Positions 191-58,932 of a DNA stretch of 64,000 nt are shown one piece after another. This stretch comes from Alphaproteobacteria bacterium (GTDB lineage: Bacteria > Patescibacteriota > Minisyncoccia > Phycocordibacterales > JABAAK01): contig JASGCN010000002.1 of the NCBI GenBank assembly GCA_030054135.1, positions 21,484 through 85,483 on the forward strand, read 5' to 3'. The position numbers were made by a program, and so were the translations under genes. Numbering within the stretch: position 1 is the stretch's first letter; each line of letters opens with the position of its first letter. The notes under the pieces were generated by a model. That model had not been told where the DNA came from. It saw only the letters and a program-made list of their open reading frames with translations, and made no database searches.

Positions 191-219
191 TTGCTATTTT
201 AAGTTTTATAGGTATACTA
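191..219 (+). promoter_or_regulatory. Putative sigma70-type promoter TTGCTA-N16-TATACT upstream of small SD-led ORF
   Basis: Hexamers read directly from sequence; spacing 16. Confidence 0.3.
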
Positions 220-250
220 ATTATTAAATAATAAAATAAAGGAGAAAAAT

Positions 251-421: not shown

Positions 422-450
422 TTGACAATCATGAGTTTTTAGTTTATAAT
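422..450 (+). promoter_or_regulatory. Canonical sigma70 promoter TTGACA-N17-TATAAT
   Basis: TTGACA 422-427, 17-nt spacer, TATAAT 445-450; followed by SD-led ORF at 483. Confidence 0.55.
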
Positions 451-482
451 TAATTAAATACATTAAAAAAGGAGATAAAAAA

Positions 483-701
483 ATGGAAGAAGAAAAACAA
501 TTTGTTATTACACCAGAAAAACTAAAAAAGTATGGCAATAGTATAATACGCCCTGATGACCCCCCCAAGGAGAAAGAAGCGGTATCTTCATCAGATGAAA
601 ACCCTTTCAAAAGATTTCTCGATGAATTTGATAAATCACCGGGGGGTCTAAAAAATTTTTTTGAGTTTCTTTTGAAACTCTCCCCACCGGAAAAGAAGTA
701 A
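483..701 (+). CDS. Hypothetical 72-aa acidic/lysine-rich protein, SD-led (AAGGAG 8 nt upstream of ATG)
   Basis: ORF track 483..701; strong SD at 469-474; terminator immediately downstream; no family recognised. Confidence 0.5.
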   Translation: MEEEKQFVITPEKLKKYGNSIIRPDDPPKEKEAVSSSDENPFKRFLDEFDKSPGGLKNFFEFLLKLSPPEKK

Positions 702-813: not shown

Positions 814-840
814 TTGCAATTTTAAAAATAGGTGTATAAT
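814..840 (+). promoter_or_regulatory. Putative promoter TTGCAA-N15-TG-TATAAT driving a short transcript
   Basis: TTGCAA 814-819; TGTATAAT 833-840. Confidence 0.4.
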
Positions 841-846
841 AAAGTA

Positions 847-920
847 AATCAACAAACAAAAGGAGGTGATCCGTCTACCCCTCTCTCCAAATTGTTAACA
901 ATTTGGAGAGAGGGGTTTTT
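847..920 (+). ncRNA. Candidate small RNA (~70 nt): single-stranded AAAGGAGGUGAUCC followed by 15-bp-stem intrinsic terminator (CCCCTCTCTCCAAATT-GTTAAC-AATTTGGAGAGAGGGG + T5)
   Basis: Promoter-to-terminator unit with no plausible ORF (only GTG directly abutting the AGGAGG, 10 codons); terminator 878-920. Confidence 0.3.
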
Positions 921-1008: not shown

Positions 1009-1743
1009 ATGAGCAGAGAAACACGTAGGAGTGGGGGACAACAAAAAAAAGAGAAGTTTGCAAGACAAAAAATAGAAAACATAATCAACCAAATAAAAAA
1101 AATAAATAGTGAAAATGGAGAAAAAAAATTTATTATTGTGTTAAAAGATACGAACCTGAATGTGTTGATATGCAAACAATTGATTTCAAAAAAATTATTT
1201 TCTGAAAATCATATAAAAATATTTCTACTCAATAAAAATTATATAGAAAATTATAATGCCATAGAAGCATTAATTAGAAATGAAAATATTATTCCCAGTG
1301 ATGCATTGGATACACTCATTGCACATGTAAATACAATTTTTTCTATAAGAACACAGATTAATAATCAAGATACAGATATTATTTTTTCATTTACGAATGC
1401 ATATATTAAAGCTAAGGAAACTAACCAATTTCCTCCATGTAAGTATTTAACATACTTGGATCCAATATTTATTAATGAATTAAAAAAAATACTGAATCAT
1501 ATTCCAGTATCTAGAAGTTTTTTGCGTCATCTTAATACACGCTTTTCGTTCATAAGACAAATTGCACAATTGAAATATGCCAGTGGCATTTCTGTTATTC
1601 AACGCGGTCGCAAAGATGAAGTATTAAAAAAATATACTGCAACCACAGACAAAATATTGCAACAAAAATTGAAAAAATTATATCTATTGATACACGAAAA
1701 ATCTGTACAATTGCAACATGACATTATCACAAGAAATAAATAG
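1009..1743 (+). CDS. Hypothetical protein (244 aa); leaderless-type start (TGGTATAAT 5 nt upstream of ATG)
   Basis: ORF track; -10 box at 998-1003; no family recognised. Confidence 0.55.
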   Translation: MSRETRRSGGQQKKEKFARQKIENIINQIKKINSENGEKKFIIVLKDTNLNVLICKQLISKKLFSENHIKIFLLNKNYIENYNAIEALIRNENIIPSDALDTLIAHVNTIFSIRTQINNQDTDIIFSFTNAYIKAKETNQFPPCKYLTYLDPIFINELKKILNHIPVSRSFLRHLNTRFSFIRQIAQLKYASGISVIQRGRKDEVLKKYTATTDKILQQKLKKLYLLIHEKSVQLQHDIITRNK

Positions 1744-3768: not shown

Positions 3769-3881
3769 CTATTGATGAGTGGATGCCTTATACTACAGTT
3801 GTAAGAGATAACTACATTGTTACAATGTTGACGGTGCAAGTGAGCTTACGTTATTATTATTGATTTTGATATTTGATATTT

Positions 3882-4310
3882 ATGAACAAAAAATTATATG
3901 TCGGTGGTCTTGCGTGGGCAACTACTGACGAGTCATTACAAGCTTACTTTGCATCAGCAGGAGAAGTTGCTTCTGCTCGTGTAATTCGTGAACATGGGAC
4001 TAATCGTTCACGAGGATTTGGTTTTGTGGAAATGGCCGATGAGGCTGGCGCACAAAAAGCAATTGACACACTTAACAACACAGAACTTGATGGGCGCGCT
4101 ATTTCAGTTAATGAAGCTCGTCCTGAAGATCCTAATCGATCACAAGGTGGTGGTGGAGGCGGATACCGAGGCGGTGGCGGAGGTGGATATCGAGGCGGTG
4201 GCGGAAGCTACGGCGGAGGTTCACGCGGAGGCTACGGCGGAGGTTCACGCGGAAGCTACGGCGGAGGTGGCAATCGTTACGAAAACAAATCATCTAACGG
4301 AGGGTACTAA
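3882..4310 (+). CDS. Glycine-rich RNA-binding protein with RRM domain
   Basis: KLYVGGLAW...RGFGFVEM RNP2/RNP1 motifs; C-terminal GGGGGYRGGGGG repeats. Confidence 0.85.
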   Translation: MNKKLYVGGLAWATTDESLQAYFASAGEVASARVIREHGTNRSRGFGFVEMADEAGAQKAIDTLNNTELDGRAISVNEARPEDPNRSQGGGGGGYRGGGGGGYRGGGGSYGGGSRGGYGGGSRGSYGGGGNRYENKSSNGGY

Positions 4311-4392: not shown

Positions 4393-4848
4393 ATGAACGA
4401 TTGGAAACAATTTACTGAAGAACAAAAAAAACAAAAACTTGCAGAAATGGATTCAGACACAATTGATGTTACACAACACGCGGGAACAGAAGCTCCATAT
4501 TCTCACCCATTGGATTCACATTATGAAAAAGGTATTTATGTTGATATTATTTCAGGAGAACCTCTTTTTTCATCAACGGATAAATTTAATAGTGGGTGTG
4601 GATGGCCTGCGTTTTCAAAACCAATTAATAAGGCAATGGTAAAGGCTATTAATGATACATCACACGGTATGCGACGCATAGAAGTGCGAAGTTCTGTTGC
4701 TGGTTCTCATTTGGGGCATGTGTTTGAAGACGGCCCTGAAGAATCAGGAGGGCTTCGATATTGTATCAACGGAACATCTCTTCGTTTTGTAAAATTTGAA
4801 GATATGGAGAAAGAAGGATACGGAGAGTATAAACAATTCGTTTCATAA
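4393..4848 (+). CDS. msrB: Peptide-methionine (R)-S-oxide reductase MsrB
   Basis: [27 protein letters not shown] conserved SelR motifs. Confidence 0.85.
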
Positions 4849-12980: not shown

Positions 12981-15923
<2,943 letters not shown>

Positions 15924-32169: not shown

Positions 32170-32189
32170 TAAAGTGGTACAATAGAAAT

Positions 32190-39155: not shown

Positions 39156-39370
39156 GTATCTACTACAAGGGTACTCGCACCCAGTTAGTGTATGCACTAA
39201 TTAAAACCTTTTTTAAGGGCGAAATTCACTTGTATTTGCTCTTTAACCAGTATTGATAGAATAATAATCTACAAGAAAAAAAGAAAGTGGTAATCGTATA
39301 TTTACTTTTACCCCGATCTTTCCTTTTGATTTGAAATTAAAGTGATTTGATGATAACAAAAAAAATATAT

Positions 39371-40828
<1,458 letters not shown>

Positions 40829-41023
40829 CTTTTGAGCAATCTGTAATAAGATTGTTTGGTCAAATGTCTTTACTTTATGTAAAGACAAGATAATAACACA
40901 ACATCTCTAAAGAGTGTTCGGTATAGCCCATACACGATAGGGTAGGAAAGAACGGGGTAAAAGTAAGTAGACGATATCATAGATTATTTTTTCTATACAA
41001 TATTGGATAACGCGAAACAAAAA

Positions 41024-55688: not shown

Positions 55689-55788
55689 TTGACAAAATGC
55701 ACAAGAATTAGTATTATCAAATATCTACCAAGGGCTACCCTCCTGCCCTTGGTAGAGGCCAAGAATTAATAGTTCTTGGCCTTTTTTT
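55689..55788 (+). ncRNA. Candidate small RNA: TTGACA-type promoter, then 11-bp-stem hairpin with loop UACCCUCCU, then terminator hairpin AGGCCAAGAA-TTAATA-GTTCTTGGCC + T7
   Basis: Promoter-hairpin-terminator unit with no ORF; hairpin CTACCAAGGGC/GCCCTTGGTAG perfect. Confidence 0.3.
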
Positions 55789-55838
55789 GTGTCATATTCA
55801 ACTTGACACACATAAGTTGAATGGATATATTAGATTTA

Positions 55839-55870
55839 GAAATATCAATGGAGCGCTCCATTGATATTTC
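55839..55870. promoter_or_regulatory. Perfect 32-bp palindrome GAAATATCAATGGAGC|GCTCCATTGATATTTC followed by C8 tract
   Basis: Read directly; 16-bp arms with no mismatch. Confidence 0.5.
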
Positions 55871-55942
55871 CCCCCCCGACCGTTTAAATCTATATATACA
55901 GAAAAAGTACAAAAAAAAATGTGATCGGGGACTAAATTTATT

Positions 55943-55986
55943 GATCCTCAATTCGAAAAGAATTGAGGATTTTTTATGTCCCATTT
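55943..55986 (+). terminator. Rho-independent terminator-like hairpin (GATCCTCAATTC-GAAAA-GAATTGAGGAT + T5)
   Basis: 11-12 bp stem plus T run, ~25 nt upstream of tgt. Confidence 0.5.
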
Positions 55987-58808: not shown

Positions 58809-58932
58809 TGGTGCTTTGCATATACATTGACTTCGCTAAATTGAGAAAATACAAAAAAATTAAAGTGAAAGTGCATGCATATCTTCTCCTTTTTTATTTT
58901 TCAATATAAGTGAGTAGTGGTATAATGCTCGT

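Follow-up and report, generated by a model that had tools for sequence, protein, structure and literature searches.

The first kilobase (kb) of a 64,000-nucleotide (nt) stretch of contig JASGCN010000002.1 (referred to below as the window, meaning the whole stretch that was analysed) contains a short promoter-to-terminator unit at 814-925, which carries an exact complement of the canonical 3' tail of bacterial 16S ribosomal RNA (rRNA) in a genome whose own 16S rRNA lacks that tail. The promoter and leader of this unit are paralogous to those of two neighbouring small-gene modules. This paralogy is new here, having been missed by an earlier note that described the unit. Our preferred reading, which we hold tentatively, is that the unit represents the final member of a series of small-gene cassettes duplicated in tandem, that this copy has no open reading frame (ORF), and that its purine-rich box would be read by something other than the 16S rRNA, the copy itself being a decoy or a remnant. 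It is best filed as a candidate leader-derived small RNA (sRNA), i.e. an ORF-less terminal copy of a leader cassette.

Anatomy of the unit

The unit and its immediate surroundings comprise the following features.

814-819 (+): -35-like hexamer TTGCAA, a sequence reading, homologous by local alignment to the TTGCTA of module C3 (see below)
835-840 (+): -10 box TATAAT, within TGTATAAT at 833-840, with TG immediately before the box
846-876 (+): predicted unstructured 5' segment AAAUCAACAAACAAAAGGAGGUGAUCCGUCU, its start placed by leaderless spacing and its fold essentially unpaired
859-872 (+): AAAGGAGGTGATCC, the exact 14/14 complement of the canonical 16S tail GGAUCACCUCCUUU
866-898 (+): 10-codon mini-ORF, GTG to TAA (VIRLPLSPNC), with its stop codon in the hairpin loop
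877-916 (+): terminator hairpin, a perfect 40-nt palindrome with an 18-base pair (bp) stem, 9 G-C pairs and a TTAA loop
917-925 (+): T-run TTTTTATTT, on the + strand only
949-921 (-): promoter-like site TTGACA-17-GAAAAT, a 10/12 match, which would start an antisense RNA at the hairpin
1009-1743 (+): next gene, with a CM_2 domain (chorismate-mutase-like) and its own TATAAT ending 5 nt before the ATG

As claimed in the earlier note, the 14-nt complement is exact. It occurs once in the window, with 2.8e-4 exact copies expected by chance from the base composition. The extent of the match is precisely that of the free single-stranded tail of canonical 16S rRNA, ending at both of its borders, and this tail is directly visible in the Patescibacteria relatives L028 and L071. 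The general anatomy that had been described, namely a TATAAT box followed by an unstructured A-rich 5' segment and a strong terminator, was also found. The motif begins 18 nt past the end of the -10 box, which is a perfect TATAAT, whereas TTGCAA matches the -35 consensus at 4 of 6 positions and is separated from the -10 box by a 15-nt spacer, outside the 16-18 nt range. Because our consensus scan requires a spacer of 16-18 nt, the promoter of the unit is absent from the list that it produced; the homologous C3 promoter was listed. Copies of TGTATAAT are also present at 37-44 and 731-738, inside a 57-nt repeat. In the genes of the window, the -10 box most often ends 5-6 nt before the ATG, which would place the transcription start of the unit at ~846-848. 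With this calibration on leaderless gene starts, the predicted RNA lengthens from the ~70 nt proposed earlier to ~75-80 nt.

The G+C-rich hairpin stands directly before a U-run (TTTTTATTTT), which identifies it as an intrinsic (Rho-independent) terminator. It had rightly been called strong: its stem is the longest among the 21 terminators found in the window and it is the strongest terminator there, but this stem measures 18 bp rather than the 15 bp originally given. A folding energy of -36 kcal/mol (z = -6.9) was obtained for the 79-nt stretch, the first 30 nt of which are essentially unpaired. The sequence that comes after the stem on the minus strand is TAGACGG, without a T-run, and the terminator is therefore unidirectional (+ only). 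The best Rfam match to the unit, driven by the hairpin, scores 27 bits against a threshold of 67, and nothing in Rfam reaches threshold.

The claim that no ORF can use the motif was borne out. No start codon opens an ORF ~4-12 nt after it, and the sole start-like codon after the motif core is the GTG at 866-868, which lies inside the motif and overlaps its GGAGG core. We judge the mini-ORF that it would open, 10 codons ending in the hairpin loop, to be non-functional. A 56-codon ORF (832-1002) begins upstream of the predicted transcription start and reads through the hairpin. As regards a type I toxin-antitoxin locus (a small hydrophobic ORF with an overlapping antisense RNA), there is a hydrophobic 23-codon ORF upstream, at 754-825, besides the minus-strand promoter-like site at 949-921, but this ORF is without homologs and of a kind that T/G-rich DNA yields by default.

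Several other accounts of the region were tried and rejected. Since the ATG of the CM_2-like gene is preceded at 5 nt by a separate TATAAT box, the unit is not the leader of this gene, and the possibility raised in the earlier note that the region is part of a longer mRNA leader does not hold for it. A leader-peptide attenuator of the CM_2-like gene was discarded, as the mini-ORF has no usable start, the gene has its own -10 box, and the sole alternative pairing is of 5 bp vs the 18 bp of the terminator. The idea that the minus strand preserves the remains of a 16S 3' end was dismissed because the similarity stops at 14 bases on both sides and the hairpin beside the motif has no helix-45 features. 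Finally, we rejected an assembly chimera at the hairpin. An independent Logan contig (SRR23378605) starts inside the palindrome, at 887, but this is no evidence for a false join because a k=31 graph breaks in this way at a perfect 40-nt palindrome. As a consequence of this break, positions 1-886 of the window, motif included, are backed by the NCBI assembly alone.

A tandem array of small-gene cassettes

The region upstream of the unit, in which we label the unit C5, contains the following features.

191-250 (+): module C3, TTGCTA-16-TATACT, AAAGGAG at 238-244, ATG at 251 (local alignment)
422-482 (+): module C4, TTGACA-17-TATAAT (12/12), AAAGGAG at 468-474, ATG at 483 (scan and local alignment)
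483-701 (+): small gene QM526_01310, 72 amino acids (aa), opened by the C4 ATG, of a tandem family specific to this metagenome-assembled genome
696-752 (+): downstream copy of the 57-nt repeat (upstream copy at 1-57), which combines a stop codon with an 8-bp terminator and TGTATAAT

AAAGGAG, the first half of the motif, occurs 13 times in the window (11 on the + strand and 2 on the - strand). Three of these boxes, at 238, 468, and 859, lie 17-19 nt after a -10 box. Local alignment of C3 (180-262) with C5 (800-880) gives a score of 37, and that of C3 with C4 (410-494) a score of 44, neither of which was reached by any of 300 shuffles; for C4 and C5 the score is 28 (p ~0.003). The similarity of C5 to both C3 and C4 spans the -35 region to GGAG and ends exactly there. 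Outside AAAGGAG the leaders of the three copies are ~60-70% alike, whereas AAAGGAG itself is identical. The ATG follows the box after 6 nt in C3 and after 8 nt in C4, the leader of which is unstructured. The 30-codon ORF of C3 is doubtful because palindromes and a long hairpin lie behind its ATG. Two 15-nt palindromes, ATGATTTATAATCAT and ATGATTATAAATCAT, begin at this ATG and lie 6 nt apart (251-292); they resemble paired operators or an RNA hairpin more than they do a coding sequence.

The 72-aa protein encoded behind the C4 leader has a sole homolog among 1.84 billion representatives, the 74-aa QM526_01295, which is 40-46% identical and is encoded three locus tags upstream of QM526_01310 on the same 97.8-kb contig. 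With a GC content of 0.36 vs a gene mean of 0.35, the 72-aa ORF has native composition. The small ORFs have no matches in PHROGs and Pfam. The two copies of the 57-nt repeat, which share 93% identity, mark cassette boundaries. With its paralogous leaders, 57-nt repeats, and 72/74-aa paralogs, the region is thus an array of small-gene cassettes arranged in tandem and specific to this lineage. The unit fits this family by its promoter and its AAAGGAG leader, and the 72-74 aa family ORF is missing behind the leader. Because the unit is paralogous to the AAAGGAG leaders, the core of its motif was inherited, and only the 7-nt extension is special.

Searches for relatives of the locus were performed in several collections. 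Neither the GTDB species genomes nor 5.8 billion proteins contain a relative of the CM_2-like gene, and the 72-aa protein has no donor homolog in 5.8 billion or 1.84 billion sequences. Homologs of a DM13-domain protein (33-53% identity) were found in five other contigs, in unrelated contexts and without synteny. A pattern scan of viral contigs returned three unrelated hits for the motif plus 5 nt and none for the hairpin, a pattern scan of JGI metagenomes returned four unrelated hits only, and BLAST of positions 1-1010 against phages and plasmids gave only AT-rich noise. Within ~0.9 megabases (Mb) of Paceibacteria DNA, sampled around the 16S genes of relatives and representing only ~1% of each genome, the motif with at most one mismatch occurs only in true 16S tails of the few lineages that have kept them.

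The array holds one further promoter-to-terminator unit, at 105-180, with a GCGTATAAT box, a 46-nt pyrimidine-rich hairpin containing GUCUCUCCGUCUCUCU, and a T-run; it folds at -21.8 kcal/mol (z = -4.6). An RNA-binding protein with an RRM domain and a long Gly/Arg-rich tail is encoded at 3873-4310, 3 kb from the unit at 814-925.

The 16S rRNA tail and leaderless gene starts

A single 16S gene is present in the window, at 39365-40829, and it is not linked to the 23S-5S pair. Its helix 45 is normal, with a GGAA loop, and GAATGTAATTAAC comes after it.

40817-40829 (+): 3' tail of the own 16S rRNA, GAAUGUAAUUAAC, with no CCUCC

CCTCC was found neither in this tail nor in the next 200 nt. The motif is not complementary to the organism's own 16S tail, as a functional Shine-Dalgarno (SD) site would have to be. 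We also considered an alternative anti-SD sequence in this tail and rejected it, since the best pairing is CAAAAG:CUUUUG (6 bp) with the leader of the unit, and less with the sister leaders. Part of the own 16S rRNA resembles the motif itself: positions 40561-40573 carry AAGGAGTGATCCG, which is the same as AAGGAGGTGATCCG of the unit minus one G (13/14, one gap). We judge this resemblance to be coincidental because it lies inside a structural helix of the 16S 3' major domain.

Gene starts in the window are of a leaderless type. Of 56 genes, 24 have a -10-like hexamer whose end is 5-9 nt from the ATG (mode 5-6), several more have near-variants, and no GGAGG or other SD sequence was found before any of the 56 gene starts. 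The genome thus appears to translate almost exclusively from leaderless mRNAs. Nearly every gene appears to have its own box of the TGnTAnAAT type 5-9 nt before the ATG, e.g. at 999-1004 (ATG 1009), 58918-58926 (ATG 58933), and 32174-32182 (ATG 32190), and genes within apparent operons are also preceded by their own -10 box. The same leaderless pattern is seen in the relative L002 (a 491-kb ENA contig). With a 16S rRNA devoid of an anti-SD tail and with leaderless mRNAs, the motif cannot serve as an SD site in this cell. It does resemble one: it is fully complementary to the canonical 16S tail, and its setting, ~13 nt into the predicted transcript in an A-rich 5' stretch free of structure, is that of the sister leaders, where an ATG comes 6-8 nt after the box. 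It differs in that the unit has no start codon, the own 16S rRNA has no anti-SD tail, and other genes have no SD sites.

The earlier note was right that the genome's own 16S rRNA is without the canonical tail, but not in treating this as a peculiarity of the genome. In ~70 related species the 16S tail reads GGA(A/U)NAAUUC(A/C)A..., without CCUCC, in place of GAUCACCUCCUU, and a canonical or near-canonical tail was found in only five of the relatives examined. The anti-SD tail has therefore been lost across the clade. Wolfebacteria and Campbellbacteria are among the organisms for which a lack of CCUCC, together with a scarcity of SD sites, has already been published (PMC10783764). The tail variants of the relatives (TTCAATTTGAA, TCCAATTGGA, CTCAAATTGAG, and TCCAATCGGA) resemble a short hairpin kept by compensatory changes (L004-L123); if this reading of the sequences holds, it would look as if a small terminal stem-loop has replaced the anti-SD tail in ~70 Paceibacteria. 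The tail of the window's own 16S rRNA deviates from the consensus of its relatives.

A few leadered genes of tail-less Paceibacteria display SD-like boxes at proper spacing, such as TGGTATAATAAAAAAGGAGGTCATCAGATG in L017 (L017:1632-1668; L047:1401-1440 and ~4560-4600; L002, minus strand near 15582-15640). In the tail-less relatives, GGAG/GAGG at a spacing of 4-10 before the first ATGs was counted 41 times vs 27 in the background, weakly suggesting SD use in at most a few percent of genes.

Other features of the 16S gene bear on the identity of the organism. The 530 loop (GTGCCAGCAGGAGCGGTAATAC, 39831-39852) has CUC upstream instead of GGC, a compensated swap in the 505-507/524-526 pseudoknot, and this change mismatches the universal 515F primer site. 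GTGCCAGCAGGAGCGGTAATAC matched >120 species genomes, nearly all of them Paceibacterota, Parcubacteria, Nomura-, Kaiser-, Adler- or Zambryskibacteria, and the best match to the 16S gene of the window is only 84% identical. The NCBI label 'Alphaproteobacteria bacterium' is probably wrong, as 16S and gene content point to Patescibacteria/Paceibacteria; PilM, a type IV pilin, and unlinked rRNA genes all fit Patescibacteria. In several relatives, the 16S 3' end lies 1.1-2.3 kb past the 530 loop instead of the usual ~955 nt (L049, ~1928; L099, ~837; L100, ~2669; also L024, L043, L054, L083, and L113). These long 16S genes have a conserved GGGCUGGGAGGAAGGAGAGGAUGACGCCAGG segment in common, which suggests insertions or introns within 16S. 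Insertions and introns in 16S are known for this radiation.

Readings of the unit

If the unit is the last copy of the array, the cassette plan would consist of a sigma-70-type promoter, an A-rich unstructured leader starting near a conserved TAAAT, AAAGGAG, a small ORF, and a terminator. In the unit, the leader would instead pass directly into a very strong one-directional terminator, and this array-end hairpin may insulate the CM_2-like gene from the array. The product would be a non-coding RNA made of leader and terminator, transcribed from a weakened promoter of its own or by read-through from the TGTATAAT at 731-738. Its AAAGGAG core would have been inherited by duplication, remaining unchanged while the surrounding leader diverged, and would be read not by the 16S tail but by another RNA or by a protein. 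Indeed, AAAGGAG is identical in three diverged leaders of a lineage that has long been without an anti-SD tail, from which we infer a non-16S reader. The ORF-less copy would at most be a competitor (decoy) for this reader, and otherwise an inert remnant.

Precedents exist for parts of this scheme. Short terminated 5' leaders can act in trans, such as the SreA riboswitch leader of Listeria, and sponge RNAs can mimic the site at which a target is bound, such as the chb mRNA trap for ChiX. Like these, the unit is a terminated, ORF-less duplicate of a leader that carries the box of its sister mRNAs; unlike them, the factor that it would titrate is only hypothetical, and it may be a dead copy. The unit also resembles the truncated terminal repeat of a tandem array, as it lies at the downstream end of the array with promoter and leader kept and the ORF missing, although a simple truncation does not predict a 14-base match to the canonical 16S tail.

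This match is the first of several points that weigh against our preferred reading. The GTGATCC extension beyond the AAAGGAG core has a chance of 3.2e-5 per box and is not accounted for by descent, being wholly absent from C3 and C4, so that this copy alone matches all 14 bases. In addition, the 15-nt promoter spacer is suboptimal, making independent transcription uncertain. No AAAGGAG reader was identified, the one candidate in the window being no better than chance, and the window does not reach the leaders of the array members further upstream. The locus was found in no related genome.

Chance is an unlikely explanation for the extension. The leader family would then have reasons of its own to carry AAAGGAG, and the next seven bases in this copy would merely happen to read GTGATCC. 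It is consistent with this that the window shows no clear enrichment of the motif with at most three mismatches (10 occurrences vs 3.7 expected, with 1 of 100 shuffles reaching 10), that near-matches are not enriched outside 16S genes in the ~0.9 Mb of related Paceibacteria DNA, and that the motif was singled out post hoc from a scan of many windows. The small numbers expected per window and per AAAGGAG box argue against it, as does the coincidence of the match with the single-stranded tail of canonical 16S rRNA at both ends.

We also consider it improbable that the motif is the relic of a true SD site, brought in with the cassette, or with this copy of it, by horizontal transfer from an SD-using donor, the ORF being lost later. 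Full-length SD sites do exist: in L128 the 14-mer directly precedes an ATG, and the Kuenenbacteria locus L028 has AAAGGAGGTGATAT (a 12-mer) followed by cATG. The ATGs of C3 and C4 are at ideal SD spacing, and the scattered SD-like leaders of other tail-less Paceibacteria (L017, L047, and L002) are in line with such an origin. However, the 72-aa protein has no donor homolog in the collections searched and its composition is native. The paralogs are only 40-46% identical, which makes the family old, in a lineage with clade-wide loss of the anti-SD. A neutral 14-mer should also have decayed, as the extension has in C3 and C4, and no start codon or ORF remnant was found.

A trans-acting sRNA, the 5' seed of which would pair with a CCUCC-containing RNA, either the loop UACCCUCCU of the RNA at 55724-55790 or a target outside the window, is quite unlikely. 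The unit has the architecture of a seed-plus-terminator sRNA, with a ~30-nt single-stranded 5' segment, a Rho-independent terminator, and a total of ~75-80 nt; it departs from such sRNAs in that no target was found in 64 kb and no Rfam family matches. In its favour, the candidate partner has a promoter that matches at 11/12 positions and a terminator of its own, and its 11-bp stem carries a C-rich loop of 9 nt. Nevertheless, the pairing proposed in the earlier note with the hairpin loop of the candidate RNA at 55725-55755 was not supported. The loop (55736-55744) can form only 6 bp with the motif (AGGAGG:CCUCCU, duplex -12.4 kcal/mol), and 5% of random 30-nt segments of the window pair as well. 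The search for complementary targets that the note had called for gave no convincing trans target in the 64 kb, where complementarity does not exceed chance and the best non-self duplexes lie on non-transcribed strands or inside coding sequences.

The RNA at 55724-55790 is of interest in its own right. It belongs to an orphan unit (55689-55790) with TTGACA-17-TATTAT (11/12), an 11-bp hairpin bearing the 9-nt C-rich loop UACCCUCCU, and its own terminator, which folds at -38 kcal/mol (z = -7.2) and has no Rfam match. This two-hairpin RNA is a convincing candidate sRNA with an exposed C-rich loop. It is adjoined by a second orphan unit (55803-55975) with TTGACA-17-TATATT (11/12), a hairpin then seven C, and a terminator at 55943-55971, also without an Rfam match.

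It is very unlikely that the minus strand is the functional one. An RNA started from the 949-921 site would begin with the 18-bp hairpin, expose GGAUCACCUCCUUUU, and regulate the AAAGGAG leaders of the array. The promoter-like site, with its perfect -35, is suitably placed, the predicted fold leaves the motif unpaired after the 5' hairpin, and 7-8 bp are possible with the C3 and C4 leaders. Against this, the -10 box (GAAAAT) is weak, no T-run follows the hairpin, and there is only a poor terminator downstream on this strand.

Finally, the array (1-925) could have been built for an SD-using partner, host or competitor. The ~75-nt RNA of its last unit would sequester the canonical 16S tail of the foreign ribosomes and block their initiation, and the tail-less producer would be immune. 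Patescibacteria are generally regarded as host-dependent, the borders of the 14/14 match are those of the free tail of canonical 16S rRNA, and the producer has no such tail and uses leaderless mRNAs. Furthermore, the array is the only region of the window with generic -35/-10 promoters and SD-spaced ATGs before ORFs. Synthetic oligonucleotides complementary to the 16S 3' end inhibit bacterial initiation in classical experiments, and the unit is likewise fully complementary to the free 16S tail and has no start codon; those oligonucleotides are man-made reagents. To our knowledge, no natural RNA fully complementary to the 16S tail acts as an inhibitor, and we know of no mechanism that delivers RNA between bacteria, which leaves this scheme without a delivery route. 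The locus has neither an export signal nor export machinery linked to it, the unit is single copy with a weakened promoter, and it was not seen in the other genomes scanned. We consider this scheme extremely unlikely.

What the unit means depends on which of these readings applies. A unit that is no more than a truncated cassette would matter little beyond its annotation. The full complement of the canonical tail in a tail-less genome, however, has no comfortable ordinary explanation but a chance of ~1e-4. Recurrence of such complements in other tail-less Patescibacteria would point to an RNA aimed at foreign ribosomes, which, if true, would be a natural RNA-based translation inhibitor with built-in self-immunity. 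With regard to our preferred reading, the identity of AAAGGAG in three diverged leaders of a lineage that has long been tail-less implies a purine-box reader besides the 16S tail, which would bear on the handling of the few leadered mRNAs in bacteria whose translation relies almost entirely on leaderless ones.

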